Virus record (IMG/VR): IMGVR_UViG_3300042475_004015
Coordinates: 1-62,625 of that record
Length of the DNA: 62,625 bases
Source: a virus
Lineage: Duplodnaviria > Caudoviricetes
Direction: 5' to 3' (one strand)
Each line of letters begins with the position of its first letter. The first letter of the stretch is position 1. The notes beneath the pieces were generated by a model that was given only the letters and a program-made list of their open reading frames with translations, was not told the DNA's origin and ran no database searches. A program made the position numbers and the translations under genes. Positions 2,384-61,800 of the stretch are shown piece by piece.

Positions 2384-3169
2384 CTAAACTTTTGGGTATT
2401 TTGAAGTGATAAACTCTTCAGGTGCTACTAGGTCAGCGAAGATAAGGGGGAAGATTTCCTTAGCGTATGGTAGAATACAAAGACTTAGCCTTCTGATTTC
2501 AGCATCAGCACCCTCGCCACCTCTTAATTCTAAAAAGTGTCTTAATGCTCTTAGGTTACAAGTCATTACCAGCCTTGTTTCTGCAGCATTGGGTAGTAAA
2601 GATCTAGCTGTTTCATTGATACGCTTTTTAAGCTTACTAGGTACTTTAACGTCTGAGTTTATATACCCTAAGTCTTTTTGAAGGTTAATGTAAGCCTGTA
2701 AGCTATGGTCACAAGCAGTCTTAAAGTTATTAATAAGACCCTCATCATTCAAGTCAACTAACAAGGGCGGAATAACAAACTTTAGGTCTTTAGCATCTAC
2801 ATACCGTTGGGACTCTTGACTCCATGCAAAGCCAGCTCTATGACGAACAAGCTCGTGACTACAGGAACGTGAGATACCAGAGATAGCGAAGGAGATGCTT
2901 GAGTGCTCAAGAACAGAGCCGTGTCTTTGCTCTAGAATGTTCTCGATATACTGTTTGCTATCACGACCCTTTTCCCAGGACCGGTAGCAGTGTCTACCAG
3001 CAAACTCAACTAGCGCATCTGGTACCTTAGAAGTAAACAACTGATGTAGCGGGGTAGACTCGTTATCAGCTAGATCGCCTAAACTATGATAATCGACCCA
3101 GTAATCCAGGTTTTCATGACTCATCGTAGACCAAGCAATGGGTACTACTGTAGGTTGTGTAAGATACAT
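2384..3169 (-). CDS. thyX: Flavin-dependent thymidylate synthase
   Basis: HGSVLEH, SHELVRHR...SQESQRY, NLRALRHFLELR, AEIR motifs. Confidence 0.95.
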   Translation of the reverse strand: MYLTQPTVVPIAWSTMSHENLDYWVDYHSLGDLADNESTPLHQLFTSKVPDALVEFAGRHCYRSWEKGRDSKQYIENILEQRHGSVLEHSSISFAISGISRSCSHELVRHRAGFAWSQESQRYVDAKDLKFVIPPLLVDLNDEGLINNFKTACDHSLQAYINLQKDLGYINSDVKVPSKLKKRINETARSLLPNAAETRLVMTCNLRALRHFLELRGGEGADAEIRRLSLCILPYAKEIFPLIFADLVAPEEFITSKYPKV

Positions 3170-6434: not shown

Positions 6435-6613
6435 CTTATATACTCTATAAATTGGGGTCTAATGTGTTCAGAAACACCAAAATCTATATTAAATAAAATG
6501 ATAACTATATCAAACTATTTCTTGTTGGTTATTTAACCCTTATATAACAGGTTGACCTAGTATTACTTTATAAATATCATCTTTTCTATCAAAAACTATC
6601 TATGGGAGGAATC

Positions 6614-6748
6614 ATGGAAGAGGAAAATGAGGGCATAGAGTTTTGCCCATGCTGTGAACAATGGGTTGACGAGTTATTGCCATGCCCTACCGATGACTTT
6701 ACCAGGGTATGTTTTGCATGCCTGGAATCAATGGAAGAAGATGAGTAA
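6614..6748 (+). CDS. Small acidic Cys-rich protein (44 aa, not in ORF track)
   Basis: GGAGGA RBS; MEEENEGIEFCPCCEQWVDELLPCPTDDFTRVCFACLESMEEDE. Confidence 0.55.
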   Translation: MEEENEGIEFCPCCEQWVDELLPCPTDDFTRVCFACLESMEEDE

Positions 6749-6751
6749 ACT

Positions 6752-7278
6752 ATGAAAAAGTACACACAAAAAGACCTAGAGGATCACAACTTAATCACTA
6801 ATGTATATGATTTTGTAAGGGATAAATTCCGAACACCTTGGGACCCAGAAAATGATAGCTTTGAAAGCTGTCTTCTTTCAAGATCACAGGTCTCTGAAAT
6901 GTTTAGGCTGATGTCAGATGCGACAGGTGTAGAAAAATCGGATTTAATAATAACCTTTGCAAACCACTACAAAATCCCTAAAAGAGGAGAAAGTCTATGA
7001 CTACGTTGTTGCTTTATAAAGATAAGTTTGCCTATTACGAAGTAAAACCTCTACAGCCATCTGATATTAAATGGGGGTTAGTCCCCTTTTATCATGATAA
7101 AGAGGCTCAACTTCAAAGAAGGCTATCTGAAGAGCATCAGGTTGAATATGGCTTTACTAAAACTAATATAGGTGTAAGTAAATTCCACGACCATATTATT
7201 GACTTTGGACTTGAGATAGTACCTATTTGCCTATCTAAAAATGGAGAAAAAGTTATTAAGGTCGAGGTAAAAGACTAA
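6752..7278 (+). CDS. Two coupled hypothetical proteins (6752-7000, 6997-7278)
   Basis: ATGA overlap; GAGGAG before the second gene. Confidence 0.55.
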
Positions 7279-7375
7279 ATCTTGATCAGTAATAGTGTAG
7301 CTTTTAGAATAGAGGTTTTATCTATAAAAAGAAATCATTATTATAAAACTACAACAACTGAAACAGGAGATTTAT

Positions 7376-7612
7376 ATGGTTGATGAAGATGACAGTGACG
7401 TTAAGCAATCAGCGGTTGATCGCTTTCAAGAGATTATGTATACAATCTCTGAATTAGCTCAAGAAGCAGTTGATTTATTGCCTGAACACGCAGTTGCAGC
7501 AGCTAAGTCTTATTGGTACCCCCATATCTTATGTGCTATCGGGGACTCATACCATGACTATCTGGGCGGTAGCATGTGCAGTATGGAGGATTCATTAGAA
7601 ACCTTACAATAA
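7376..7612 (+). CDS. Acidic hypothetical protein
   Basis: AGGAG RBS, 78 aa. Confidence 0.65.
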   Translation: MVDEDDSDVKQSAVDRFQEIMYTISELAQEAVDLLPEHAVAAAKSYWYPHILCAIGDSYHDYLGGSMCSMEDSLETLQ

Positions 7613-7622
7613 AGTATCAATG

Positions 7623-7697
7623 GGTCGTCTAGTTCAATGGTAGAACGTCCCGCTCATAACGGGTTAGTTATCGGTTCGAGTCCGGTGGCGACCACCA
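7623..7697 (+). tRNA. tRNA with CAT anticodon (Ile2 or elongator Met)
   Basis: Acceptor GGTCGTC/GGCGACC, anticodon loop CTCATAA, TTCGAGT T-loop, encoded CCA; paired 1:72 so not an initiator. Confidence 0.9.
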
Positions 7698-7764
7698 TAT
7701 AACAGTTGAACTTTTTAACAAAACGACATTATAATCCCTTCTAAACTTAATCAAAGGAGTCTTT

Positions 7765-7998
7765 ATGACAAACAAAAACCCTATCCAAGAAGTACCTGAC
7801 CTTTACGTTCAAAAAGTAGATGGTCTTATTCGCTCCGGCTTCAACTTAAACAAAGTAGCTATGTTTAATGTAGACAGACAGTCTGGTGTGATTAACCTTA
7901 CCTTGACTTTTGTTGTGGGTGTTAGTTATGTGGTTTCTTTAACTACAGAAGCTGAGCTGGAAGCTTTTGTTGCTAAGCTTGAAAAGATCATTAACTAA
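7765..7998 (+). CDS. Hypothetical protein
   Basis: AAGGAG RBS; TTGAAC-N18-TATAAT at 7706-7735. Confidence 0.65.
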   Translation: MTNKNPIQEVPDLYVQKVDGLIRSGFNLNKVAMFNVDRQSGVINLTLTFVVGVSYVVSLTTEAELEAFVAKLEKIIN

Positions 7999-8008
7999 CT
8001 ACTGGTCA

Positions 8009-8085
8009 GACCTCTTAGCTCAACTGGATAGAGCACCTGCCTTCTAAGCAGGATGTTACAGGTTCGAGTCCTGTAGAGGTCGCCA
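8009..8085 (+). tRNA. tRNA-Arg(TCT)
   Basis: Acceptor GACCTCT/AGAGGTC, anticodon arm CCTGC-CTTCTAA-GCAGG, GGTTCGAGTCC, CCA. Confidence 0.95.
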
Positions 8086-8111
8086 ACTTAACTTAACTTA
8101 TAGGAGATAAT

Positions 8112-8285
8112 ATGATACAGCCAAAAATTGGTGACTATGTAAGGGAACGTGCTACTGGTCTTGTATATTTAGTTATAACAGAAGCTCCTTGGCTTTTAGT
8201 AAAACCCGGTCAACTCCCAATAAAACATGCTATAGACCTTTATAACGCTACAGTTATAGAGTTAGTGCAAGTGACGAGTGTTTAG
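8112..8285 (+). CDS. Small hypothetical protein (57 aa, not in ORF track)
   Basis: AGGAG RBS; MIQPKIGDYVRERATGLVYLV... Confidence 0.55.
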   Translation: MIQPKIGDYVRERATGLVYLVITEAPWLLVKPGQLPIKHAIDLYNATVIELVQVTSV

Positions 8286-8296
8286 TATCAAGCGCC

Positions 8297-8325
8297 TTGA
8301 CAATGGGTTATTAACCAGTTATAGT
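8297..8325 (+). promoter_or_regulatory. Sigma70-like promoter
   Basis: TTGACA-N17-TATAGT. Confidence 0.7.
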
Positions 8326-8353
8326 AACTTAAGTAAAGTTATTAAGGTGAGTT

Positions 8354-9157
8354 ATGGCCAATAACATTAGCGTAAAAGATTCCTCTGGAGTTACTCAAGT
8401 AGTTAAAACTACAGAGGTTTCGTCGGTACATACCCCTCACCAAAATGCTCAATTATATGTTAATGGTCAGGATGTTACCAACCTAAATCCTGTCCCGGTA
8501 GATACTGGGCTTACACCTTTAACTAATACTGAGTTAAGGGCTACAGCTGTGCCTGTGTCCGGTCCATTAACTGATGCTCAACTAAGGGCTACAGCAGTAC
8601 CGGTATCTGGCCCATTAACAGATGCCCAGTTAAGGGCTACTTCTATACCTGTAACGACTGGCGGATTAACTGATGCAGAGTTAAGAGCTACTCCAATCCC
8701 CGTTACCAGTAATGGACTAACTAATACTGAATTAAGGGCTACGGCTGTACCTGTAACAGGGCCTTTAACTGATGCTCAATTAAGGGCATCGTCAATCCCC
8801 GTTACTAGTAATGGACTAACTGATGCAGAGTTAAGAGCTGACCCTATCAGTGTAACGAGTGAATCTGCTGTAGCAGTAAGAATGCTTAATGCTTTAATAG
8901 CACCCCTTACTTATGCTTGTAACCAAGCAAACGGTAAACTCCGTGTTGATGTAGCAGGTGAGACTCTGGGTACTGTAACCACAGTATCTACTGTAACTAC
9001 AGTATCTACAGTATCTACTGTAACTACAGTATCTACTGTAAATACAGTATCTACTGTAACAAACCTGGCTCAGATTGGTTCTATAGCTGCTAACTCGCTT
9101 ATCCTTGATGCGATGTATAACCAATACGCAAATGGCGTTCGTGCTAATATAACTTAA
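8354..9157 (+). CDS. Repeat-rich putative virion fibre protein
   Basis: 7 copies of (P/G)LT(D/N)x(Q/E)LRAxx(V/I)PV(S/T) and a TVSTVT run. Confidence 0.6.
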   Translation: MANNISVKDSSGVTQVVKTTEVSSVHTPHQNAQLYVNGQDVTNLNPVPVDTGLTPLTNTELRATAVPVSGPLTDAQLRATAVPVSGPLTDAQLRATSIPVTTGGLTDAELRATPIPVTSNGLTNTELRATAVPVTGPLTDAQLRASSIPVTSNGLTDAELRADPISVTSESAVAVRMLNALIAPLTYACNQANGKLRVDVAGETLGTVTTVSTVTTVSTVSTVTTVSTVNTVSTVTNLAQIGSIAANSLILDAMYNQYANGVRANIT

Positions 9158-9173
9158 ATAATAGGTCTATGCT

Positions 9174-10718
9174 ATGCCTACTGTATTAAATTTTAAAGAA
9201 ATCATAGATCTTCCTTTATGGAGACCTAATTCGCCGGCTTTTGTAGCTACTGCTGCTGGGGGATCTTTTGCTTATGATATGAGAAACACACAGCGAAATA
9301 GCCCATATAATTATTTCCTACACAACGCTACCTCTCTATATGCCTATGCTCCAAAAAATGATGAGTGGATGCTTATTGGTTCTCCAGCTTTAGCTGGAAC
9401 TTTTGGAGCTGGTGCTACCGCGATATTTCACCCAACTCAAGGCCCAAGAGGCACTATTGCGGCTGGTGCAACAACGACTACCTTTACACTAACTACTGCC
9501 TTACCTGCAGCTGTTGGAGCTAATCAATTAGCTAACAGGGGTGATGGTAAAGGTTTTCGTATAAGGCTTATTGGTAACAGCGCTGGCGGCTCAGGAAGAG
9601 TTGAAGAACGTATTATTATTGCTAATACTGCCGGTACTACACCCACTATTACAGTCGACTCTGCCTTTACCTTTACTCCGGCCTTAGGTAATACCTATGA
9701 GATACTAAGTGGCAGGGTGTTTATGCTTTCAGCGGGTACTCTGGCTGCTGGTATGTGGAAATGGTATGACTTAGCTACTAACTCTTTCAGTGGTAACTTG
9801 ACTACAACCAACTTACCTGCAACTGTGGCAGGGGATTCATCTCTTGTAGCATTGTCTGAGGGCCATATACCTAATAACCGTAATGAATTTACTGGGATGT
9901 TAAACACAATAACGGCCAGTGCAGCAACAGGTACAACCATCGTAGCAGCCACAGGTGTATCAAATGCCTTATTCGCTGATGAATACAGAAACTTTCAAGT
10001 AAGGGTTGTGGAAGATACAACCACACCAACAGCTGTAGGTCAGAGGAGGAGGATTAGTACTCATACCTCTGGTTTAACCCCTACTTTTACAGTAGCTGCT
10101 TGGGCGGTAACACCCTCGGCTACCGCGAAATTTGTGATTGAGAACGATGATGATAAAATTTTGCTATTCACTAACCAAACCGCTGTTTATACTTACAACA
10201 TAACAGCTAACACTTGGGATACTACTACTTTTGCTGCTGCGGCTGCTGCTGGAGCTGCAGGTATTGTTGCTAGCCAAGCTTTTGGCATAACACGTGATAC
10301 TATAGGAAATACTAGGCACTCACAGATTTACCGTATTAGAGGTGGTGCTGTAAACACTATTGACGTATTTGATATAGCCGGGGCTGCTACAGGGCTATGG
10401 TCAGCTGATATAGGTTATGGTAATAAAGGTGGGACAACTTTTACAACTGGTACTTGTGGTGCCTATGATCCTGTAACGCTTGATGGAAGGTATATGTATA
10501 TTAACCCAGGTAGTACTACAGGGCAAAGATTCTTAAGATTCGATGTCCGTAATAGGGTACTTGAGCCATGGGCTTACCTAAGAGTACCGGGTAGTACAGC
10601 AGTTGTTGGTGCAAAATTAGCTCTATCCTACTTTTTTGATGGAGCCACAAAACTTAGCTATTTGTCAGTTTTGCAAAACACAAGCATTAACCAATACTCT
10701 ATAGCTTGTCAAAATTAA
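9174..10718 (+). CDS. Beta-rich Thr/Ala/Gly-rich putative virion protein (propeller-like)
   Basis: 514 aa; repeated Y.Y.I..N.W / F..YD...N motifs; two similar inserted beta domains. Confidence 0.55.
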   Translation: MPTVLNFKEIIDLPLWRPNSPAFVATAAGGSFAYDMRNTQRNSPYNYFLHNATSLYAYAPKNDEWMLIGSPALAGTFGAGATAIFHPTQGPRGTIAAGATTTTFTLTTALPAAVGANQLANRGDGKGFRIRLIGNSAGGSGRVEERIIIANTAGTTPTITVDSAFTFTPALGNTYEILSGRVFMLSAGTLAAGMWKWYDLATNSFSGNLTTTNLPATVAGDSSLVALSEGHIPNNRNEFTGMLNTITASAATGTTIVAATGVSNALFADEYRNFQVRVVEDTTTPTAVGQRRRISTHTSGLTPTFTVAAWAVTPSATAKFVIENDDDKILLFTNQTAVYTYNITANTWDTTTFAAAAAAGAAGIVASQAFGITRDTIGNTRHSQIYRIRGGAVNTIDVFDIAGAATGLWSADIGYGNKGGTTFTTGTCGAYDPVTLDGRYMYINPGSTTGQRFLRFDVRNRVLEPWAYLRVPGSTAVVGAKLALSYFFDGATKLSYLSVLQNTSINQYSIACQN

Positions 10719-10847
10719 CAAGTTAATATCACCAACACTGTCTTCCTATATATGGTAGAGTTATTCATTAACTCTGCGGGTGATGGTTGACATTAATAGT
10801 TAGATAACTATGATACATATAAATCTAAATCTAAATAAGGTGACACT

Positions 10848-11336
10848 GTGTCTACTAAAGAGTTTTTAAGTCAAGAGTACCTAGAGCTGATGATCCTAAG
10901 GGGCATTACTGACTTTACTGGGCTTCACCTAGGCGGTTTAAAAGCCATGGGTGTTGATTTTAGTAAAGCCTTTTTTAATAATACAAACTTAAATGGTGTT
11001 GATTTTAGAGAAGCTAGGTTCTTTAAAAACAAGGATGTTTTTATCGACTGTTTTATGATAGAAACTATCTTTAAAAGCTGTGACTTATCCAAGGTAGGTT
11101 TCTTTCGTAATCAAATGGCTCGTAGCGATTTTCAGTTGGCCGACTTAACGGGCTCAGACTTTGTTGAGTGTGACCTAAGAGGTGCTATTTTTAATAACGC
11201 TACTTTAAAAAAGACCGTATTTAAAGAATGTATTTTAGATGATGTAAACTTTAGTAGGTCGAGTACACTTGAGGATGCTTCTTTTATTAACTGCATTTTA
11301 GGTGGAGTAACCGTCCGTACAATTAAGATGGTGTAA
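10848..11336 (+). CDS. Pentapeptide repeat protein
   Basis: TNLNG VDFRE ARF; SDFQL ADLTG SDFVE CDLRG AIFNN ATL; TTGACA-N16-TATGAT upstream. Confidence 0.9.
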   Translation: MSTKEFLSQEYLELMILRGITDFTGLHLGGLKAMGVDFSKAFFNNTNLNGVDFREARFFKNKDVFIDCFMIETIFKSCDLSKVGFFRNQMARSDFQLADLTGSDFVECDLRGAIFNNATLKKTVFKECILDDVNFSRSSTLEDASFINCILGGVTVRTIKMV

Positions 11337-11344
11337 TTTAGTGT

Positions 11345-12494
11345 ATGGCTTGGACTGACGAACAAAATAATATACTATTCTACCACGTGTCTCGTGTGTG
11401 CGTTAGGATGAAAGAGCAAAAAAAAGCTAACTATGACCCTAAGGTTACTTGTGATAGTCTTAGGTTATTATTAGAGGATAAATACGATGGGGAAAAAGTT
11501 ATTAAAGCAACTATCGAGATAATTCACAAAAAGAGTCGTATACCATTATCATTAGAGATAGAGAGGTTTATAAATGGAGAACATTGAACAGTCTTGCTAC
11601 AGTCAGCATAGGTCGATTAGGCATAAGAGACTAGACTGTGAGGTAGAATTTAAGCTTATAACAAAAAACAAGAAGCCACATCTTTATATTAAGACTTCAA
11701 AGAGATATGAAAAGATTGCTACATTTATTGATAGAGAAGATGCCATACTGATGTTTAGTGTTTTAGAAAGAGCTTTCGTACAAAAAGACCCTAATGCTGC
11801 TATGGAATTTTTATACAGGGATGAAAATTATAGTCAAATACCGTTTTAAAGGTCAAATAGCCTAACTTAGGCCAGTAAAGACAGGGTTGAAAAGAATATA
11901 AATCCATCTACAATAATAACTACTTCTTAAATAATAAGGTTAATCGCTATGGAACAAAGTAAAACAAAAGATCACTTTAAAGGTATAAACAGGATTGAGA
12001 TTAGCGGCGTACAAGCTATCTTTTTATCTCAAGACAAAGACACTACTGTTAGGGATGAGTATGGTAACAAGATATGGTATGGGGATCAGTGGTATTACTT
12101 TTGTGAGGAAGATCAAAATTATGTATCTTGTTATATACCCAGGGCTTATGGCGGTGGAAGTTTCTACAGTCCCCCTAAGGCGTTCTTCCTTTGTGATAAG
12201 TAGGGATTAATTATGGAAAAAGTACTCTACGGCCTGTGGCATATTCAGCATGGTGATCTACTAACAGTTACAGCTGAATCTAATAATAGAACCGATTGTG
12301 TAGATATCCATCACGACTTAAGTGTTGGTGATGACAATTATTGGTTAGTAAAGGATAGAACAGTTGCCGAGAAAGCTTCTGTTCATAGCGAAGCTTGGTA
12401 CAATGCTAGCTATGATACGCCTAGTAACAGGTACAAGGGTGAAACAAAAGTAGTTAAAGTAGTAGTATGTGTAGAAGAACAGGAGTTATCATGA
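11345..12494 (+). CDS. Four small hypothetical genes (11345-11587, 11574-11849, 11949-12203, 12213-12494)
   Basis: Closely packed co-oriented ORFs. Confidence 0.55.
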
Positions 12495-12805: not shown

Positions 12806-14668
12806 TTAAGATGTGTTCTATACAAGCAGAAAAAGCCTACGATGTTGACTCATTTGACAGCGTCCGTGAGATTTTAAGCGGTTACGGCGATGCTTTTGGT
12901 TATGGTTGGGGTTGTGGCTATGATAACCTTCAGGGTATTAATACAATAAGTGGCCCCATAAACCCTGACCCTAGCGCATACCTAGAACCGAAACCGCCAA
13001 TTACTTTTGAGGAACTCGGTAGAGGTGGATACAACTACATGAATGGTACTTATAGAAATAAGACATCGTGTAAGATGGATGGCACCGGCATTACTGTTCT
13101 GAATTGTAGTGAAAAAGACCCTAAAACTATAGAGGATGAAGTTGAGCAATTTATAATTAGAGCTATCAAGGGCAAAACCTCTCTTAAGATAGCCAGAAAG
13201 CTGTAGTATCTATAACTAACGTAAGTTATAAGTGTAAGTACAGATGCGGCTCACTTTTTCAATGATAATCAATACGTTAAATAATCACCCGCAGTCCATA
13301 TCATAGGTCGTTGAATGCAGTTTTTCCTGTGTTATTGTTCTTTTATGTCAATAAACACAGGAGAACAACATGACGCAGTCAAGACTAACACCAGTAATTA
13401 ATAAAATCATAAAAGTACTTAATGAATGCGATTTAAACTCGGATGAGGTACTTGCAGTAATCGCTATTTTAGGGCCAATAGTTGCTGATACTTTAGGCAT
13501 AGATATAGAAGAAGCTTATGATAGAGCTATGTGCGTCGTTAGAGAGGAAAACAGAAAGGCAGTCGCTAATGACCTGGCAATATCTTAACCCCTTTCCTTT
13601 ATCTAATAAGCATATTGGGTTGATTTATGAGACCAAGGAAAATCAACTGGTAGAGCTTATTTGTAAAAAGTTAGTACCAAACCCCTACCAAGGTAACCTA
13701 TCGCCAGTGTGGATTGTGAAGCCCTACCCACACCAGGCAGACAGGTTTTATGAAGTTGACAGCAGAGGTCGTAGCAGAGGTGGAGGTGTCGGACTACAGT
13801 GGTATGCACCTGTAGAGGTCAGGCACCTAAGCGATATTGAGGCCGTTATCTTATCACTTAGTCATAATGTGGTAATTACTGAAACGGGGCAAAGGGTTAG
13901 GTTTCACAATAATCGTTGGCGTGAGGTCAGCGACAAAGGTACTGTACTACTTGAAAGCTATTGGCCAGATAAAGACACTAAGTTTTACCTATGGAACTGT
14001 AGTAAAATCCAGGTGTCGGAGAATATAAGAGCTAAGTTAAGAAAGATATTAAGTGGTAACTACAAAAGCAACTACAACCTAACTGGAGTACAAAATGACT
14101 AAGCACGAACCCAACTATACCCGCCAAGAGTTATTGTCTATCTTAAGGGAGCATGCCTCAACGCCTATTGGTGACCCACTTAGAGGTTTTGCACTACCCA
14201 GTCGTGTTATCTTTAATGGTAGAGAGGGCATGATCGTAGCGCAATACATTAAAGAGGTAGTGAATCTCACCTATTATGATAAGCGAGACGGATCAGCTAT
14301 ACAAGTTAGTTTAAACACTACAGGTGTTATAGCCTTGGTAGAGTTCATAAGAGAGGTTTTTATAGACAAGGTTAACTCTGAAAAATTGGTAGAGGACTAA
14401 TATGATAAAGCTCATACAAGAGTATTTAGCACAAGACAACCATCTTACTGCTGCACCCGTCTTTATTACTACAGATGAATACCCGAGAGCATTTTTACTT
14501 GCCTCGGAGGCAGAGGAGTATGCCAAAAACCGGGGTGTATCGTTTCATATTTGTTCCTTGCCGCCTGGGTCGTCTATTCGCTATCTGTTATATCAGGCAG
14601 TCAATAACCTCCGCAGTCAATTAACCCCCCAAGAGCTTGACCAAGCAAGGAATTTACTTATCCTGTAG
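12772..14668 (+). CDS. Five early hypothetical genes (12772-13206, 13370-13588, 13518-14102, 14095-14400, 14402-14668); starts uncertain
   Basis: Co-oriented, tightly packed ORFs, several with GGAG/GAGG RBS. Confidence 0.5.
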
Positions 14669-14672
14669 AATA

Positions 14673-14730
14673 GTGGTATCAATTTATTGTTGCAATGTTT
14701 ATGTTTAAAACAACAAACAAACACAACAAA
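14673..14730 (+). promoter_or_regulatory. Phage-specific promoter motif copy
   Basis: GTGGTA, TATGTT 27 nt downstream, CA-rich leader. Confidence 0.5.
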
Positions 14731-14741
14731 AGGTGAACACT

Positions 14742-15119
14742 ATGAGACTCTCCAACACAAAATTAAGAGACATGTGGGGCATGAAAGCTGTATGCAACCG
14801 TGAACTACAACGAGTGTTAAATAAATACTATAACAATCATGATAGTGTTGTTTATCGTGGCTTGCTTAGTGCAATAAATAGGTTCTTAGGGTATCATGAT
14901 GAATTTGGTCATTATCATCCAGGTGACTACAGAGACTGCGGTATTATTAAAAACGGTATCATCACCTTTGATGAGCTTACCTTAGTGTATTCATACCAAC
15001 AAACCCTAGATGGACCACATGAGCCTACTTATGAACAAGCCTTATCACTTGTTCGCTCAACAGATGCTTTGTATAACCTACAAGCTGTTGTAGAAGCCTA
15101 TCACCTCAACTACATTTAA
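14742..15119 (+). CDS. Hypothetical protein, paralogue of 19013-19372
   Basis: VYRGLLSAINRFLG / VYSGLIKCINDFLG; RSTDALYNLQ / RDTDAVNKLQ. Confidence 0.7.
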   Translation: MRLSNTKLRDMWGMKAVCNRELQRVLNKYYNNHDSVVYRGLLSAINRFLGYHDEFGHYHPGDYRDCGIIKNGIITFDELTLVYSYQQTLDGPHEPTYEQALSLVRSTDALYNLQAVVEAYHLNYI

Positions 15120-15132
15120 TAGAGAGTTTATC

Positions 15133-15496
15133 ATGACAAAGTACCCTGCAAAGAAAAAGAAAGAACTGTTGCAAACGCTGGAGAAGCTTAGACAAGATTT
15201 AAGCAAGGCAACCGACAAGAGGAGAGTCGAGCTATTAAAACAATCTATTAAAGATTGCGAGAGAATCTTAAAAACCACAAAGGAGTAGTAACATGGTCAC
15301 CCTTATCGTTCTTATCATTAACATGGCTAATCTTGAGCCTCAACAAAGTGTCCATCTACAGAAGTATAAGACTGTAGAGCAATGTCAGCGTGTCGGTGAA
15401 GAGATTATAAAGCTCGAGACCGACGAACTTAAAAAGCGAGATGCCTTAAATAAAAATGGCAAAAGCTACCAGATCACGTTCCGTTGTATTAAGTAG
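15133..15496 (+). CDS. Two small hypothetical genes (15133-15288 basic, not in track; 15293-15496)
   Basis: Open frames with RBS-like sequences. Confidence 0.5.
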
Positions 15497-15504
15497 AGGT
15501 TAAC

Positions 15505-15864
15505 ATGCAGAGTCAAGAGATAATTATTCTACAGCACATTTTGGCCGAACTACAGGGTATAAGTGCAAGTATCACTAATGCCTTGTCGGTCCAAAGAGTA
15601 AAAATCCCTAGAGCAGCTAAGATCTCTCAGGCACAACAGTTAGTCTATGATACAATGGTAAAACTACATGAGGAAGATATAGCACCCACCCGTAGGATCA
15701 TAGCTGAGCGATCCGGTATGGATATGATACAGACCTCAAATACCGTTCAGTCTATGCTACGAAATGGTCTTATAAACTATACTGGTATAAGTACTTGTAC
15801 TATAACAGGCCGTAGAGTTCAGTCGTTTACAATAAACGCAATAGAACTTAATAAGATAGGCTAA
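15505..15864 (+). CDS. Winged-HTH protein, paralogue of 15892-16269
   Basis: PTRRIIAERSGMDMIQTSNTVQSMLRNGLI. Confidence 0.65.
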   Translation: MQSQEIIILQHILAELQGISASITNALSVQRVKIPRAAKISQAQQLVYDTMVKLHEEDIAPTRRIIAERSGMDMIQTSNTVQSMLRNGLINYTGISTCTITGRRVQSFTINAIELNKIG

Positions 15865-15891
15865 TCCACAACACTAACTACGGGAGTTAAC

Positions 15892-16269
15892 ATGCAAGAG
15901 ATACCAGTACTACAGGAGATTTTAGCTGAATTAAAAGCTATAAGATCGATTATATCTATCCAAGAAAGGCCTTCAGTTAAGCGAGCTATAGACCCGTTTC
16001 CTGAAGACAGAAGATTACCATTAGCTAAAGCAAGGATGGTAGCTAATGAAAAAAGGCTAATCTTAGAGGCTATAAAACAGCTTAATCATGATAATATAGT
16101 AGCTACTCGTAAATCTATAAGCGAGCTCTCAGGTATAGACGTGATACGAGCCTCAAATAGGCTACAGTCTTTAGTAAGTGATGGCCTTGTAGATAGTGAT
16201 ATATTTGAAAGTAGAGAGACCGCCCACAAAGTTCAATCATTTAAGATAGGAGCAAGAGATGCTAATTAA
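15892..16269 (+). CDS. Winged-HTH protein, paralogue of 15505-15864
   Basis: ATRKSISELSGIDVIRASNRLQSLVSDGLV; shared LQxILAEL N-terminus and VQSF C-terminus. Confidence 0.65.
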   Translation: MQEIPVLQEILAELKAIRSIISIQERPSVKRAIDPFPEDRRLPLAKARMVANEKRLILEAIKQLNHDNIVATRKSISELSGIDVIRASNRLQSLVSDGLVDSDIFESRETAHKVQSFKIGARDAN

Positions 16270-16678
16270 AAAGATAAGTATAAATGAGCTTGCAAAGTTA
16301 CTCCATAATACTAACTATGGAGACTGGAGGAATAATAGCGAAGCTTGTTATAAGCTGGCCAAGCACTTGGATGAAGTAGCTACTCTACAGGGTAAGCCTA
16401 TGGAGGTGGACGAGATAAAGTTAGTGCAAGAGTGGGACATCTATAAAAGCCTGAAGCATTGGATGGATGAGCATGGCGTTACGTCTGACAATTTGGAAGA
16501 CCTACCGGGTACTACGTTCATACCTTTAGATAACAGCTTGGGTGGATTGGCAGGCGGATTGATAGCTAAAAACATTAAAAAAGAGCCTTTACGAACTGGT
16601 GATCAGTATTTACTACAGGGTAACCCGACCACTGGTAAATCTTTAAAGGGTCTTTTCATGAGTAGCTTTAAACGATAA
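16259..16678 (+). CDS. Hypothetical protein, three-member paralogue family
   Basis: NYGDW...EACYKLAKHL motif shared with 18303-18608 and 18626-18943. Confidence 0.65.
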   Translation: MLIKKISINELAKLLHNTNYGDWRNNSEACYKLAKHLDEVATLQGKPMEVDEIKLVQEWDIYKSLKHWMDEHGVTSDNLEDLPGTTFIPLDNSLGGLAGGLIAKNIKKEPLRTGDQYLLQGNPTTGKSLKGLFMSSFKR

Positions 16679-16689
16679 CTTAAGAACAC

Positions 16690-16745
16690 GTCGTATAAAG
16701 GCATGATTTTTTGTTCTATATTTAATTATCAACACAAAACAAAGG
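16690..16745 (+). promoter_or_regulatory. Phage-specific promoter motif copy
   Basis: GTCGTA, TATATT 27 nt downstream, then TAATTATCAACACAAAACAAAGG. Confidence 0.55.
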
Positions 16746-16753
16746 AACACAAC

Positions 16754-17153
16754 ATGGAACACAACAATAAATTAGTGCCTTTATTTAAAAACATCATTAT
16801 AGGCACCTTTCAGACGCTTACATTAGCAAAAGCTCATGCTAAAAGGCACTTTCCTAACATGCGAACAGTCATTGTAAAAGATGGCAGTAAATACATCCTA
16901 ATGATAAAGTAGAGAGGATTTTATGGAAGACATCAGAAACCTAATCGACCTTGCTGCTCCTATACTATCACAAGAGGAGCTCAATAACTTTATAGCTTAT
17001 ATAGAAAAAGTGTCTAGTAACTTACACACAATAGTGGATACTGACCTTATTCAAATAAGCAGGGATGAAGCCGAAGCCCTTACTAAAGAGCTGAACTTCA
17101 TCACCTCAGAAGCTAAAAGATACTATCAACACAATACAGGAGATAAGTCATGA
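16754..17153 (+). CDS. Two small hypothetical genes (16754-16912, 16923-17153)
   Basis: AAGGA and GAGGA RBS. Confidence 0.55.
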
Positions 17154-17491
17154 GTAAGTTAATATGTTATTGTTGGGCTAATGGTAACATTGGGTTCAGT
17201 AAGACTCGTGTACCAAAAGGTGCACTACCTGTTGCTACGGGTGATGGTATAAAATGGAGGGGAGAGATAGAGGTTTTATGCAGGCTTGCCTATGATAATA
17301 AGACCTATATAATCTCTGAGGTTAGGGATGCCGTACTTCATGGCGGGGATGCTCTCGAAGCTTTACGTGATTTTATGACTAAGCTGGAGAAGTTGGGTTT
17401 AAAAGACCCTGATACAGTATTAGGTCAAAAGGTAAGAGAGTTAGCAAAGTCTAACCAAGACTTCGTAGATAAAATAAGGAGTAGTATATGA
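17150..17491 (+). CDS. Phage family often annotated as host nuclease inhibitor
   Basis: CYCWANGNIGF...PKGALPVA.G...CRLAYD motif. Confidence 0.5.
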   Translation: MSKLICYCWANGNIGFSKTRVPKGALPVATGDGIKWRGEIEVLCRLAYDNKTYIISEVRDAVLHGGDALEALRDFMTKLEKLGLKDPDTVLGQKVRELAKSNQDFVDKIRSSI

Positions 17492-17757
17492 GCCGAGTTT
17501 TAGTATATCACAGTTCAGACAAGGGCTTTTGTAGAGCCTATTTTTACTTGTATGAGGATGGCGTTAAGACAAAGGCACTTTATTGCCTACAGGAGGGTGG
17601 TCCTGTACCCGGTGTTTATCTTTATCGCTGTACTAGGGAATGGAATCCGTGCTATATGGTGACAATGAGTTCAGAGACTACAATGGAGCCACCTAAAGCT
17701 GGTGTAGATAGTTATGCAACAGGGTTATATAATACTTATCATGGATTAACGGATTAA
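17488..17757 (+). CDS. Hypothetical protein
   Basis: AGGAG RBS, ATGA overlap. Confidence 0.6.
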   Translation: MSRVLVYHSSDKGFCRAYFYLYEDGVKTKALYCLQEGGPVPGVYLYRCTREWNPCYMVTMSSETTMEPPKAGVDSYATGLYNTYHGLTD

Positions 17758-17767
17758 GGTGGTATAG

Positions 17768-18235
17768 ATGTTAAAAATAGGACAAAAGGTGGTTTTTAAC
17801 CATTGTGGGAACTATCCATATAAAAAAGACTTTATCTACTGTGGGTTAGATATAAAGCCAATCGACCATCAGGCTGAAAAACCAAAGCTCTTGCTCTGCA
17901 CTGACTTTGATTATGCAAGAGATTCTTGGGAGACAGTTACTTCGTATAACCCTGATAAGAACTTGGCTCTTATACTACCAGACATACATCAGCTAACTAT
18001 TTTATATGAGCTTAAAGACATCATAGGCTGCTTTCGTGACTACTTTTATTGGTCTTCTACTGAAGATACTATAGACACAGCTATAGGTATTCATTTTGGT
18101 AACGGCAAAGTCTCTACAGGGTCTAAACAGAGGATGTGTTACGTGAGGTACGTTTATTTGATAGCTGAGGAGACGTTAAGGCAGAAGTCACCCTTTTCGT
18201 TTTTAGCGTCGTATTTGGAGGACAATGGCTTATAG
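17768..18235 (+). CDS. DUF1566/Lcl-like domain protein
   Basis: LPDIHQL...FYWSSTE...A.GIHFGNG......K....YVR.V. Confidence 0.65.
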   Translation: MLKIGQKVVFNHCGNYPYKKDFIYCGLDIKPIDHQAEKPKLLLCTDFDYARDSWETVTSYNPDKNLALILPDIHQLTILYELKDIIGCFRDYFYWSSTEDTIDTAIGIHFGNGKVSTGSKQRMCYVRYVYLIAEETLRQKSPFSFLASYLEDNGL

Positions 18236-18239
18236 ATAA

Positions 18240-18275
18240 GTCGTTTTAATCTTTAAGACTTTGTTTATGTTTAAA
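18240..18275 (+). promoter_or_regulatory. Phage-specific promoter motif copy
   Basis: AAGTCGTTTTAAT...TGTTTATGTTTAA. Confidence 0.6.
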
Positions 18276-18302
18276 CATTATCTTAACAAGAGGAAACAAG
18301 TT

Positions 18303-18608
18303 ATGCTTATTACTATTCACAGTGTTAAAGAAGTTGCTGTTATGTTGCAAAAAGCAAACTACGGTGGGTGGAGTAAAGACCCGGAGGCTTGCTTTGCTCT
18401 TGCTCAATACCTTGAAAACCTATCTCAAGAAACAAAAACAGCTATCCAAGTTAATGTGGTAGACCTTGTTCAAAGATTTAGTATCTACAAAAACCTTAAA
18501 GACTATAATAACACGTTTGTGCCAAGTGTAGAAACGATAGATGAGATTAAAAAAGTGACAACAGTTATAAAGCTAGAAAAGGGCCGCTTCATTATTCAAG
18601 ACTTTTAA
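18303..18608 (+). CDS. Hypothetical protein, paralogue family with 16259 and 18626
   Basis: NYGGWSKDPEACFALAQYL...GRFIIQDF; GAGGA RBS. Confidence 0.7.
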   Translation: MLITIHSVKEVAVMLQKANYGGWSKDPEACFALAQYLENLSQETKTAIQVNVVDLVQRFSIYKNLKDYNNTFVPSVETIDEIKKVTTVIKLEKGRFIIQDF

Positions 18609-18625
18609 ACTGGAGACTATGAACT

Positions 18626-18943
18626 ATGTTTATCCAAACTGTCGAGTTATCTCAACATGAAGCTGCTTTACAACTTTTAAGGTCAGACATCTACCCTTGG
18701 AAGGGAGATATTGAGGCATGTATTGAACTTACCGAATACCTATGGAGTAAAGCAGTAGAGGAAAACAAACCTTTTGACTTTAATGTTAAAAAGTTGGTAG
18801 AGCGTTTTGAAGTCTACTATACGGTTGACCTCTTTAACCGAGAGCACAGTACTGCTTTTGAACACCCGGGCGAAATAGCTGATAAGTTAAATATAGTAAT
18901 TATCCCAATCCGTTATGGCCGTTTTATTGCTGAAGTCTTATAG
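18626..18943 (+). CDS. Hypothetical protein, paralogue family with 16259 and 18303
   Basis: YPWKGDIEACIELTEYL...GRFIAEVL; GGAG RBS. Confidence 0.7.
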   Translation: MFIQTVELSQHEAALQLLRSDIYPWKGDIEACIELTEYLWSKAVEENKPFDFNVKKLVERFEVYYTVDLFNREHSTAFEHPGEIADKLNIVIIPIRYGRFIAEVL

Positions 18944-18947
18944 ACAA

Positions 18948-19003
18948 GTCGTTTTAATGTGTTACTAGATTGTTTATGTTTAATTATCAACACAACAAAT
19001 GGA
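18948..19003 (+). promoter_or_regulatory. Phage-specific promoter motif copy
   Basis: AAGTCGTTTTAAT...TGTTTATGTTTAATTATCAACACAACAAATGG. Confidence 0.6.
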
Positions 19004-19012
19004 GCACACAAC

Positions 19013-19372
19013 ATGCAAGTACAAGTCACCACACAGCTGCAAGACCTGTTAGCCGCTAAATACACTAAAACCTTTATGGATGGTGACGTCCATATAATAA
19101 TGACTAAGATAGTCTACAGTGGCCTTATTAAATGTATCAATGACTTTTTAGGCCATGATGGCGAGGATGGTGAGTTCACCGACAACCTACTGGTTAAAAG
19201 CGGGTTTGTTACTATCGACGAAGATACCTTGGTGAAGTCCCACCTACTCTTAGGGAATACTACAACTGATCATGCACGAGCTGTTATACGAGACACTGAT
19301 GCTGTTAATAAACTACAGCAGCTTATCATTGATAACAACCTTACTACACTTGACAATCTTGGAGGAATTTAA
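19013..19372 (+). CDS. Hypothetical protein, paralogue of 14742-15119
   Basis: GGAG RBS; shared motifs with the paralogue. Confidence 0.7.
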   Translation: MQVQVTTQLQDLLAAKYTKTFMDGDVHIIMTKIVYSGLIKCINDFLGHDGEDGEFTDNLLVKSGFVTIDEDTLVKSHLLLGNTTTDHARAVIRDTDAVNKLQQLIIDNNLTTLDNLGGI

Positions 19373-19374
19373 CT

Positions 19375-20066
19375 ATGAGCGAGTTTACCGACCTGACTAC
19401 AGCAGTGGTCCATAATAATATCACCTACACGATAAGGCTAGAGTGGACTGGCTTCTCCCCATTGGATAATGATGATGGCTTTTGGCCTTCTAACGACCCG
19501 GAGGATCCTGGCTATGTATTGCCACAACACTATGAGCAAGCATGTCAGCAAGCTCGCCAAAGGTATACTGCTTGGTCTAATGATGAATGGTACTTTGCAG
19601 ATGTTCATATAGATGCGACTATGACTGTAAAGCTTGATCTCTACACCGATAGACAGGTGATCTTCACTAGTGTGGCGATCATAGGCGGTGTAGAGTCAGA
19701 TGATATTGAAAGTATCTGCTGCCTGGCAACTGTGGGTTTACTACCAAATGCTATAGAGTATACCGAGCAACTGATCAACAAAATGGCAACTTTAATACGG
19801 AGCTAATCATGAAAGTTAAGCTGCATCACTATCTACATATTAAGGAGCAGATCCGCAACTCTGTGACAAAACAGCGAGCTGAAACTCATAAAAAGTTCCT
19901 TATATCAGAGGGCAGATACAAGTGTTTAGAGACTCGTTTAGTCTTTGACATCGCTTATATGGCGGACCTCTCGCGTTTCGTTAGTGATAACATCTACAGT
20001 TATGCAGATGATAGCCATTTAAAAACAGCCTACAGGAGGGCTTGTTTAGAGCTTGGTTTACTGTAA
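19375..20066 (+). CDS. Two hypothetical genes (19375-19806 acidic, 19809-20066)
   Basis: GGAGG and GGAG RBS. Confidence 0.65.
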
Positions 20067-20074
20067 ATAGTTAC

Positions 20075-20220
20075 TTTTTATACAGGTTAAGCTTTTTTAA
20101 GACTTACATAATAGCGGTTTTTATACAGGCCAAGGTTTTTTAAGATTTACATAATAGCACTTATTGTAAATCATAAGGTTTTTTAAGGTTTACATAATAT
20201 CACTTATTGTATAGGCTAAG
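20075..20220. repeat. Three imperfect 43-bp tandem repeats
   Basis: TTACATAATA at 20104, 20147 and 20190, each preceded by AAG(C/G)TTTTTTAAG. Confidence 0.85.
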
Positions 20221-20912
20221 AGTTTTTCAGCATAAAATGTAAATGTTGAAAAACCCTTGGCCTGTATAATAAATATAAACCAAATTTTCTACAGGCTATA
20301 TTTTAGGGTGCTAAAACATGTACAACATGAGGGGTCATTTGGTGATTTACATTTTGCGATTCTATGGATCGAATTTTTTAAAGTTTGCTATTCTATGGAC
20401 GCTTTGCTAGCCTATTTTGATCAAAATGTAAAAAGTAAGGGTTTTTTGGTTTGTATTAGGTTGTTGTTTTTAAAGACTATGTAAATCATAGGAAAATTTG
20501 GGTATCAATGAATCGCAAACACACACATTCGTTTTGCTATTCATTGACGAGTATGGATCGAATGTGTATTTGCTACAGGAAAATTTATAGTAGTATTTTA
20601 TGTTGATTTTTGGTTTTGTCTATTAAATAGCAGAGCATCCATTGTTAAGCAAACGAATAATACTTGGTTTTATACATAATAATATAAATAGTATATATAT
20701 ATCAATGTATTATTATTTTTTAAATGGTTTTTTGTTTACAGTCTGAAGCAAACGAGTGTGTTACGCGAAGGGTTTTTGCTATTTAATGGACGGGTTAGAA
20801 AATGGGTAAGTTAGTCGTACCTGTAGTGATAAGATAAGCCTGTAGATAGGTAGTTGATCTTTTGTTGTGAACAAGATAAGATATAAATAGATAAATTAAA
20901 TGGAGTACAAGT

Positions 20913-22480: not shown

Positions 22481-22527
22481 CCTTTTGTGGCGGTGACAGA
22501 GATGGCAACATATATGTGGGTTTAATT

Positions 22528-22600
22528 AAATTCATCATAAATTCATCATAAATTCATCATAAATTCATCATAAATTCATCATAAATTTATCATAAATTTA
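22528..22600. repeat. 11-bp tandem array AAATTCATCAT (5 perfect plus variants)
   Basis: Direct reading of the sequence. Confidence 0.95.
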
Positions 22601-22757
22601 TATCAATTTTTAATTAAATAATATCCCTAAAATATATATCAAATTTTATATAAAAATAATCATATATCAAAATGAATTTGAATCAACCTTTTTTGTGTGT
22701 TGTGTTGTGTGACATATATATATGTATAAATTTTTTTCACCCCCATACATTTTTTTG

Positions 22758-22855
22758 TTGCATCATGAAAAAAAATTTTTTAATGTGATTTTATTGATCA
22801 TCACACAACACACAATGATCATGTTCAACACAACACAAAATGAAATGACACAATC
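22758..22855 (+). promoter_or_regulatory. Island promoter 1 and leader
   Basis: TTGCAT-N17-TAATGT; leader ends CAACACAACACAAAATGAAATGACACAATC-ATG. Confidence 0.65.
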
Positions 22856-23290
22856 ATGAAAAATACACACAACACAAAACAAAAAAAACATTTAAACATT
22901 GTTTCAAATGATGAAACAATTTTAAATGATGTTTCACATGAAACAATTTTAAATGATGTTTCAAATGATGAAACAAAAATCAATTTAAATGAATTTCAAC
23001 AATTTAAACATTTTGAAAATATCAAATTGTTTATTGAAACAAACAAAAATGATTTTTTCAAATTGACACAAATTGCAAAATTAATACAATGTGATGCAAA
23101 AACATTGAGACAAAAATTTAGAAAAATTTATGCAATTTTTGATCAATCAAAATTGACACAAATTGTTGCATCACAAAATGACAATGAAAAATGGTTGTTT
23201 GCATTTAATGAAAAAAATTTATTAAATGTTTTGAAAATGTCATACATGCAAAATATAAAAATTGAAATGCAATTATTAAAAATTGCATAA
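22856..23290 (+). CDS. Island ORF1, HTH DNA-binding protein (no Pro or Gly)
   Basis: KLTQIAKLIQCDAKTLRQKFRK...KWLF; own promoter and terminator; N-terminal 30-bp repeats. Confidence 0.75.
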   Translation: MKNTHNTKQKKHLNIVSNDETILNDVSHETILNDVSNDETKINLNEFQQFKHFENIKLFIETNKNDFFKLTQIAKLIQCDAKTLRQKFRKIYAIFDQSKLTQIVASQNDNEKWLFAFNEKNLLNVLKMSYMQNIKIEMQLLKIA

Positions 23291-23305
23291 TCAATACATG
23301 AAATG

Positions 23306-23344
23306 ATTGTGTGATATGTGAAAATGTATCACACAATTTTTTTT
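23306..23344 (+). terminator. Intrinsic terminator of island ORF1
   Basis: ATTGTGTGATA-N10-TATCACACAAT plus T-run. Confidence 0.8.
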
Positions 23345-23364
23345 CATCATCATTCATTTTTTTG

Positions 23365-23456
23365 TTGCATGATGAAAAAAAATATGACATGATATAAACA
23401 TGATCAAAACAAAATGATCATGTTCACAACACAACACAAAATGAAATGACACAATC
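23365..23456 (+). promoter_or_regulatory. Island promoter 2 and leader (duplicate of promoter 1)
   Basis: TTGCAT-N17-CATGAT with extended TG; same leader end as promoter 1. Confidence 0.65.
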
Positions 23457-23921
23457 ATGAAAAACACAATACACATAATGAACACAATGAACATAAAACA
23501 CAACATCACATTTGATGTGAATGATGAAAATTTTAATATAAATGATGTTGATTTTTATCATAAAAACATATTTGATGATATGTATAATCAATATAAATTA
23601 AACATTGATAAAATTGAATACAATGAACATGAAAAAAATTTTTTTCATCATTTTATAAATTTATTTGATAAAAAACAATTTAATAAAATTGTTATTGATT
23701 TTTTGTATATTATGAATCAATTTTGTGAACAACACACAAAAAATGATAAAAACATTTTTTTGCAAAATGTTTTATTTGAAAATGATTTTTATGAATATAT
23801 CAATAAAATATGTTTTGACAATTTATGTGATATTGATGATTTGTTTTGTTTGATTGATCATCATGATGATTATAATGATGTTCAATGTGATATATTATTT
23901 AATAACATTGTAAACAATTAA
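23457..23921 (+). CDS. Island ORF2, acidic Asn/Asp/Phe-rich protein (no P, G, R, W, S or A)
   Basis: 154 open codons in very AT-rich DNA; duplicated leader; terminator. Confidence 0.7.
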   Translation: MKNTIHIMNTMNIKHNITFDVNDENFNINDVDFYHKNIFDDMYNQYKLNIDKIEYNEHEKNFFHHFINLFDKKQFNKIVIDFLYIMNQFCEQHTKNDKNIFLQNVLFENDFYEYINKICFDNLCDIDDLFCLIDHHDDYNDVQCDILFNNIVNN

Positions 23922-23978
23922 ATCAATGTATTCATGATGATGTATATTGTTATATAATGCACATTATGACAAATCAAT

Positions 23979-24017
23979 AAATGATGCAACACATAAAAAT
24001 GTTGCATCATTTTTTTT
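23979..24017 (+). terminator. Intrinsic terminator of island ORF2
   Basis: AAATGATGCAACA-N8-TGTTGCATCATTT plus T-run. Confidence 0.85.
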
Positions 24018-24091
24018 ATTTATATATATCAAATTTTATTTAATCTTTATACACATTTAATGTGTATTGCAACCTTTTAATAATACATACA

Positions 24092-24160
24092 ATTTAATAT
24101 ATATTTAATACATATTTAATACATATTTAATACATATTTAATACATATTTAATATATATT
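24092..24160. repeat. 11-bp tandem array ATTTAATA(C/T)AT x6
   Basis: Direct reading of the sequence. Confidence 0.9.
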
Positions 24161-24320
24161 TTAACCATCACTATCTCCCCATCCATACCACCCCCACACC
24201 TATTTATTGTCAAGCACAGAAATTAGGGGATAGATACAAGAGAAATTATTACTTGGCCAAAGTATTTTCACTTTTAGGTTCAAAAAATTATAAGGGGTAA
24301 ACCTGCTATAGGGAAAAATC

Positions 24321-26135: not shown

Positions 26136-26225
26136 GCCCTGGTCCTAGCTCGTTTGTGTTATGATGTGCTTTAGGTTTTTCATGTGATGTTGTTAAGGAA
26201 AAAATGTTTTAGGTTTTTAAAATGT

Positions 26226-60007: not shown

Positions 60008-60016
60008 AGGGTTGCT

Positions 60017-61619: not shown

Positions 61620-61800
61620 TAATTATGCCCCCTTTAAAGATATTGATAAGGTTATCATGGTTATTTTTAACCTCCTCTGGCTCGCTAGCTGTTTCAACTA
61701 CAAACTCGTCACTATATAGTTCAGAGTTAGTATACTCTACTACAGCCAATAAACCTTTAAGTAGGTCATTTTCTGTTATGGTAATTTGTTTATTAGTCAT
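61609..61800 (-). CDS. Small acidic hypothetical protein
   Basis: Overlaps both neighbours in the operon. Confidence 0.55.
   Translation of the reverse strand: MTNKQITITENDLLKGLLAVVEYTNSELYSDEFVVETASEPEEVKNNHDNLINIFKGGIINAN

Follow-up and report, generated by a model that had tools for sequence, protein, structure and literature searches.

A run of small rightward genes in the phage genome IMGVR_UViG_3300042475_004015 (Duplodnaviria; Caudoviricetes) is broken between 13.3 and 20.1 kb by five longer gaps that share a sequence motif, which raises the question of what this repeated element does. The window analysed here is the whole virus record of 62,625 bp, a complete phage genome with exact direct terminal repeats of 127 bp. 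The metagenomes with this phage, all DNA runs, are from lake and freshwater. Megablast against deposited phages returned zero matches, so there is no close deposited phage, and no deposited phage record exceeds 49% identity to the family-A DNA polymerase. The original prediction, made from the sequence alone, read the repeats as activator-dependent middle promoters that avoid modifiable cytosine in the DNA melted and first transcribed. We found five modules, four strong and one weak, each heading an operon of small genes at 13.3-20.1 kb. They are probable promoters, three of them with an ACA-type leader, and cassette junctions lie in the leaders. The repetition, placement and conservation of the modules and the cassette junctions are observed; promoter activity, timing, the need for a factor and the enhancer effect are predicted.

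The motif is present as originally described. GT(C/G)GT(A/T) lies 26-27 nt 5' of TAT(G/A)TT at 14673, 16690, 18240 and 18948, and a weaker copy at 13307 has its box 26 nt ahead of TATTGT. Over both strands the pattern of the original prediction matched five times against 0.16 expected and none of 300 dinucleotide shuffles reached five, numbers that are generous because the pattern derives from the counted sites. The core TGTT(N)TAT(G/A)TTTAA matched four times against 0.06 expected, with 0 of 300 shuffles equal, at sites identical to the four strong modules. The fifth match to the full pattern, at 35339, was not counted as a module; it is intragenic and lacks a CAA leader.

Placement provides a separate argument. 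Between 13.0 and 20.1 kb exactly five gaps measure at least 60 nt (163, 73, 75, 67 and 69 nt), all of them with a single copy of the motif. All remaining gaps in this region are 27 nt or shorter. The motif marks a real and conserved family of promoter-leader modules, which are probable promoters of a distinct class.

Alignment of the five modules and their counterparts in relatives divided the module, which starts at the stop codon of the gene before, into four parts. The first is an upstream block of about 20 bp that closes with a GTCGT-type box followed by a T-rich AAT. This box occupies the -35 place but lies about 4 bp farther upstream. After a variable spacer of 12-13 nt comes a contiguous core, TTGTT(N)TAT(G/A)TTTAA, containing a usable -10 (TAnnnT), and then a leader of 25-30 nt. 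The distance from the first hexamer base to the ATG is uniform, at 37-42 nt. All five modules have a -10 hexamer of the TAnnnT type (TATGTT in three, TATATT and TATTGT in the others). In agreement with the original prediction, TTGACA is missing: no module passes a sigma-70 consensus scan, and the best hexamers at 16-18 bp match at only 2-3 of six positions by reading. The modules are not extended -10 promoters either, since TG stands two to three bases ahead of the hexamer (TTGTT-TATGTT; TTGTTC-TATATT) and not one.

All five modules lie on the plus strand. In P14673 (14662-14741) the upstream block runs from the preceding stop codon, with GTGGTA at 14673, the -10 TATGTT at 14700-14705, a predicted start near 14712, a CAA-rich leader and the ATG at 14742. 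P16690 (16679-16753) joins GTCGTA at 16690 to TATATT at 16717-16722, has a predicted start near 16729 and carries TATCAACACAA in its leader (16727-16737) before the ATG at 16754. For P18240 (18231-18302) the box is GTCGTT at 18240, the -10 TATGTT at 18266-18271, the predicted start near 18278 and the ATG at 18303; its leader is not CpA-only. P18948 (18939-19012) has GTCGTT at 18948, TATGTT at 18975-18980, a predicted start near 18987 and a leader reading TATCAACACAAC... ahead of the ATG at 19013. The weak module P13307 (13307-13369) consists of GTCGTT at 13307, a candidate -10 TATTGT at 13333-13338 and an AGGAG leader before the ATG at 13370.

We next compared the modules with those of related phages. 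A metagenome scan with the promoter pattern gave 13 loci, of which L021, L024 and L025 are true relatives, 84-98% identical to the window over 6.1-24.2 kb. The other 10 are chance matches that do not resemble the window. Scans of viral_contigs yielded one chance match for the promoter pattern and none for the protein encoded at 17768-18235 or for the DUF6948 protein, and an exact-string search for relatives with the leader gave 0 matches. Three further records, L004-L006, which carry the compositional island described below, are without the 12.8-20.1 kb region.

The four strong modules have 14 differences from L024 in 274 positions (5.1%), compared with 364 in 3141 (11.6%) for the other aligned DNA, which is mostly coding (Fisher p 6e-4); this background includes the poorly aligned stretch 16600-16678 and is about 10% without it. 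P18948 differs from L024 at two positions, both in the spacer. P18240 has three differences in 72 nt, one of them a 1-nt spacer insertion, and P16690 two in 63 nt, one just 5' of the -10. In both L024 and L025 the P14673 box reads GTAGTA and its -10 TATATT, indicating that the middle base of the box is free. P13307 is identical in L025. Separately, L024 and L025 share an 86-nt insert (L024 1780-1865, L025 8972-9057) between the orthologues of the 15293 and 15505 genes. It is not in the window and contains a hairpin with CA-rich flanks.

The modules contrast with the genes upstream of them, where five consensus-like sigma-70 promoters lie on the plus strand at 6552-11914, in the gaps at 6552, 7282, 8297, 10787 and 11887. 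These five early gaps gave the top-scoring intergenic matches of the sigma-70 scan (9-11 of 12 positions), and none of those matches fell at a module. The scan total was 68 against 67.3 in shuffles, so the early promoters stand out by score and position and not by enrichment. The fifth base of the hexamer also differs, being T in all four strong modules and A in four of the five early-class promoters. The sequences thus support a module class at 13-20 kb that is distinct from the consensus-like sigma-70 promoters at 6.5-12 kb.

At such a promoter host RNA polymerase would start about 7 nt after the -10. As the modules are without a -35, polymerase probably needs a phage factor, which would assist it from the upstream block. 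We infer that the modules would act as delayed-early or middle promoters, following the sigma-70-type early block. A search for RNA runs covering 13000-20000 found none, and comparison of four DNA runs showed no molecule ends. The proposal provides a testable regulatory map for an uncultured freshwater phage, probably with modified cytosine, in which a sigma-70 early block is followed by a -35-less class.

The modules also mark places where gene content changes. Between the window and its relatives we found three gene-cassette indels with the junction inside a module leader. At the first locus, L025 has an additional 71-aa gene directly after P13307, and the next gene retains a second copy of the distal leader. 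The second involves a variable two-gene cassette at 16742-17123 on the plus strand (genes 16754-16912 and 16923-17153), with TATCAACACAA repeats at 16727 and 17124. This cassette is missing in L024 and L025, where the P16690 promoter leads directly to the 17150 gene. A contig from run X6 has 323 other letters in place of 16748-17120, joined at 16747/17121, making three alleles at one leader. At the third locus, L021 and L024 carry an additional 142-aa gene after the P18948 leader. A record found in runs X4, X5 and X8 has only 16729-16764 in common with the window, that is the leader and first codons, and its DNA on either side is unrelated. The region has two more indels, the loss of the 13569 and 16259 genes, which lie at plain gene-boundary repeats and not at modules. 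The modules are thus favoured cassette junctions but not the sole ones. We propose that the module, chiefly its leader core TATCAACACAA, provides the short homology for insertion, loss and replacement of cassettes among related phages.

A similar arrangement is found in the PeSL cassettes of T4-type phages. These are short conserved regulatory modules that separate small non-essential genes in a hyperplastic region, and at them close relatives differ by insertion, deletion and replacement (PMC2839356, PMC4122927). Three loci behave in this way here. By contrast, a PeSL consists of a strong sigma-70-like promoter and a terminator stem-loop, whereas the modules have no -35 and no predicted terminator. 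The systems further differ in that the junction homology lies here in the mRNA leader and that the phage is an unrelated 62.6-kb genome. In this lineage a short promoter-leader module is an accessory-gene exchange site, extending the PeSL idea beyond T4-type phages and shifting the exchange point into the mRNA leader.

The position of these junctions also fits a reading in which the modules are not promoters at all. The operons would then be expressed by read-through from the early sigma-70 promoters, and the conserved blocks would be translation or RNA-processing elements together with cassette-boundary repeats kept by recombination. A terminator scan found none at the five modules and none between the operons, which are co-directional; the indel junctions fall in the leader; and conservation is strongest in the contiguous block from -10 to leader. 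However, the two-block conservation with a variable spacer, and a TAnnnT hexamer 37-42 nt from each ATG, are promoter-like. A transcript-level element starting at the leader would not include the upstream GTCGT block, and the other indels of the region use plain gene-boundary repeats instead of modules. We therefore regard read-through without module promoters as unlikely, although slightly more probable than the other alternatives.

The original prediction explained the leaders in another way, by extending to the promoters a rule seen in an island of extraordinary composition. In this island (22521-24164, found also in L004, L005, L006 and L021) C is nearly confined to positions before A, and G to positions after T, with clean runs of 365 and 850 nt and a GC content of about 23%. 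The modules would be activator-dependent middle promoters whose melted and initially transcribed DNA obeys the same duplex rule and so carries no modified C, meaning no C outside the context before A. The island rule is real and extreme. There is a precedent for modification acting on promoters in T4, where cytosine modification is reported to alter the activity of some middle-promoter boxes (PMC2988021).

We scored any C not before A, and any G not after T, as a violation. Genome-wide, 31% of C stands before A and 30% of G after T, and about 27% of all bases break the rule. The stretch 14681-14730 does obey it, as claimed: it lies in a clean run at 14677-14731 of 55 nt with 12 C+G, the only long one outside the island, which tops 200 of 200 shuffles (maximum 49 nt, 11 C+G). 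That the other leaders nearly obey the rule was borne out only in part. From -12 to +21, violations number 4, 1, 2, 4 and 2 among 7-10 C+G in P13307, P14673, P16690, P18240 and P18948, so that three of the five modules conform and P18240 and P13307, with four each, do not. The five early sigma-70 promoters have 4-7 violations among 6-9 C+G in the same interval. This difference is real but rests on three leaders. When base composition is taken into account, obedience is notable only in P14673 (p 0.02) and P18948 (p 0.009), and the clean run of P18948 (18969-19001, 33 nt) is close to the mean longest run in shuffles, 33.7 nt.

The leader quoted in the original prediction recurs twice with at most three mismatches (16722 and 18980), but P14673 has a different CAA-rich leader. 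A stretch on the minus strand at 26152-26194, put forward as a similar leader, has four violations among 14 C+G and no promoter motif upstream. Nor is the rule kept over the whole element, as the GTCG box (on both strands) and every Shine-Dalgarno sequence break it. In relatives, the leader after P18948 contains CC and CT, which the Shine-Dalgarno sequence does not require. A melted and initially transcribed region free of modifiable C thus fits just three of the five promoters, with the other two breaking the rule within the predicted bubble or initial transcript.

The three obeying leaders consist of A and C alone, without G or T, from the predicted start to the Shine-Dalgarno sequence. They are strand-asymmetric, unlike the island, which uses CA and TG alike, and this asymmetry indicates RNA rather than the duplex. 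Ranked by the number of ACA and CAA triplets within 40 nt 5' of the start, the five highest of 107 genes were those of three modules and two island genes, at 12, 11, 10, 9 and 9 against a mean of 2.0; P18240 and P13307 both have 5. The two island genes are ORF1 (open reading frame 1), with a CAACACAAC-type leader as in the modules (22822-22855, plus strand), and ORF2, with the same CAACACAAC-type leader module (23424-23456, plus strand), both without a Shine-Dalgarno sequence. The plant-virus omega leader is CAA-rich.

In Salmonella, ACA motifs 5' of the Shine-Dalgarno sequence enhance translation of yifK and dppA, and their position is flexible (PMC3879156). Three modules here likewise carry several ACA or CAA triplets directly 5' of the Shine-Dalgarno sequence. 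The systems differ in that enhancer activity is here predicted from sequence, and in that the two island genes with the same leader have no Shine-Dalgarno sequence at all; acting as an enhancer, the island leader would require Shine-Dalgarno-independent initiation. By this analogy the leaders are better read as RNA-level translation enhancers than as modification avoidance. Each would be an unstructured ACA-type enhancer of A and isolated C, present in three modules and two island genes, and the CpA-only property would be a by-product of the ACA/CAA composition.

The premise of cytosine modification is itself plausible and draws on genes for a MazG-like protein, a thymidylate-synthase homologue and a dCMP deaminase. 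They form a probable cytosine-replacement cluster on the minus strand at 59543-62134, which comprises the dCMP deaminase (59543-60007), the thymidylate-synthase homologue (60017-60856), a 257-aa protein without assigned function and the MazG-like nucleoside triphosphate (NTP) pyrophosphatase (61793-62134). The best solved relatives of the thymidylate-synthase homologue are CMP 5-hydroxymethylases. The next solved relative is a thymidylate-synthase chain with Asp at the aligned base-specifying position, as in the query, and Asp for Asn switches the thymidylate-synthase family from uracil to cytosine. From its gene content, this phage probably replaces or modifies cytosine, and the cluster suggests that a 5-substituted form fully replaces cytosine. 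A pathway of this kind, acting on nucleotides, would alter every C regardless of its neighbour, so a context rule would need a second step. A ThyX gene is also encoded, at 2384-3169.

The island leaders bear on a further claim, that the module leaders support the island model independently. This does not hold, as the same leader stands on the island genes and a cassette gene is homologous to an island gene. In L021 the P18948 module is followed by a gene of normal composition that is homologous over its full length to a gene obeying the rule in the L006 island (31% identity, E 9e-6, composition-adjusted). Being homologous to the island leaders, the module leaders are not independent evidence for the island model. 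On these alignments the leaders and the island share descent and belong to one cassette pool. This removes a false prop from the island model and ties the island genes to an ordinary cassette pool. A match of the L021 cassette protein to ORF2 of the window island was seen only with composition correction off and was rejected.

Taken with the violations in two modules, in the GTCG box and in the relatives' leader, the strand asymmetry and the need for a second modification step, this shared descent makes promoters kept free of modified C a doubtful explanation. Slightly more doubtful still is a wider proposal in which modules and island share a duplex-level grammar, with C only before A and G only after T. 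This grammar would mark DNA that escapes, or uniformly receives, a context-dependent secondary modification. A small set of cassettes would then be transcribed and translated where the remaining genome cannot be, and genes would shift between a normal and a recoded state by recombination at the shared leader. A hint of such movement is that one island gene has a homologue of normal composition behind a P18948-type module.

The island has some features of its own. Its two open frames encode 144 and 154 aa, have no Shine-Dalgarno sequence and carry their few Arg and Trp codons at the rare violations. The islands of close relatives have other sizes and other gene content, and the ORF1 orthologues of L021 and L006 have an N-terminus of normal composition. 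Tandem repeats lie beside the island, on the left at 22527-22600 (an 11-bp unit about six times, by k-mer spacing) and on the right at 24090-24160 (a 13-bp unit about five times, by eye).

We then searched for a factor that could act on the upstream block. The activator dependence of the original prediction gained no backing, with no sigma factor, phage RNA polymerase, MotA or AsiA detected. Neither a sigma factor nor a known activator turned up when 45 window proteins (early, middle, island and replication) were scanned against Pfam and PHROGs. The MotA and AsiA models (PF09114, PF09010) had no match at E <= 1 in the genome, although structural analogues may escape them. Sigma-70 region 2 of Pfam had no match in the window, and the only sigma region-4 match was the sub-threshold helix-turn-helix of a small HTH_17 protein. 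The Pfam model of single-subunit RNA polymerase matched nothing here and nothing in any control genome, so its silence carries little weight. The paralogues at 15505 and 15892 gave one sub-threshold winged-helix match. Two early proteins, of 267 and 514 aa, had no family match; for the 267-aa protein only unnamed protein-atlas clusters were found, and its atlas model is poor. Sub-threshold matches of island ORF1 orthologues to helix-turn-helix or antirepressor families (E 0.1-0.2) were not accepted as evidence.

The MotA/AsiA middle promoters of T4 offer the closest comparison for the proposed architecture. Like the modules, they have a host-type -10 with a phage-specific box in the -35 place and lie downstream of an early consensus sigma-70 block, and the hydroxymethyl-type cytosine of T4 is also probable in this phage. 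By contrast, the box here is unrelated to the MotA-box consensus (PMC2988021). It ends 16-18 bp from the -10, against 12 +/- 1 for the MotA box (PMC2988021). No MotA or AsiA homologue was found here, and there are 4-5 sites against nearly 60 in T4.

Least probable is that the modules are promoters for a phage sigma-like factor or an unrecognised phage polymerase that reads a core of about 26 nt (TTGTT...TTTAATTATCAACACAA) and not a host -10: the core is contiguous and nearly invariant in three of the four strong sites and in relatives, TATGTT/TATATT has its fifth-position T in four of four where the early class has A in four of five, and the early proteins of 267 and 514 aa are without family assignment, but the polymerase and sigma models gave only the results above and no open frame outside the identified genes is big enough for a known single-subunit polymerase.

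Several observations weigh against the reading of the modules as promoter, enhancer leader and exchange junction. The search pattern was defined from the very sites counted, making the enrichment figures generous. P18240 and P18948, and the genes at 14742 and 19013, are paralogous contexts, so part of the similarity between modules reflects common descent. The module operons are co-directional with the early block and have no terminators found between them, so read-through alone could express them. The only clear DNA-binding protein is the small HTH_17 protein, at 264-485. Predicted RNA folding is weak in the leaders but equally weak in the early-promoter controls and does not set the leaders apart. 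CC never occurs within the A/C-only leaders, which the island rule also predicts. Finally, the P14673 spacer is similar to island sequence, and the 55-nt run of this module exceeds chance.

The layout of the remaining genome was derived from a simple model of open reading frames and from family scans. Replication and nucleotide-metabolism genes occupy both genome ends, small rightward genes lie on the plus strand at 6.6-22 kb, a non-coding repeat region at 20.1-20.9 kb, the island of extraordinary composition at about 22.5-24.2 kb and structural genes at 27.7-52.7 kb. The family-A DNA polymerase (57069-59546, minus strand) has an N-terminal domain of the uracil-DNA-glycosylase superfamily at residues 29-156. 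Among the early genes, with a consensus sigma-70 promoter ahead of it, is one for a pentapeptide-repeat protein (10890-11336, plus strand) that may be a DNA mimic. The non-coding region, 20067-20912, contains by eye three tandem units of about 43 bp, each closing with a -10-like TACATAAT. Also by eye it has four copies of an iteron-like TTTGCTATTC(T/A)ATGGAC and an AT-only stretch. This region is a candidate replication origin or additional promoter cluster.

Short words are unevenly used across the genome. CTACAG (reverse complement CTGTAG) is the top over-represented hexamer, with 173 copies over both strands against 26 expected from composition, and CTACAGG has 57 copies against 5 expected. 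The CTACAG copies, roughly one every 360 bp, occur on both strands and in all frames, mostly within genes. Their density is comparable in the relatives (L004-L006, L021, L024 and L025) and low in unrelated loci. The reverse complement of CTACAG forms the opening of two promoter modules. Other words are depleted genome-wide, namely CG-rich tetramers and some palindromes (CGCG at 0.13 of expectation, GAATTC at 0.05 and TTCGAA at 0.10), a pattern that suggests restriction-site avoidance.

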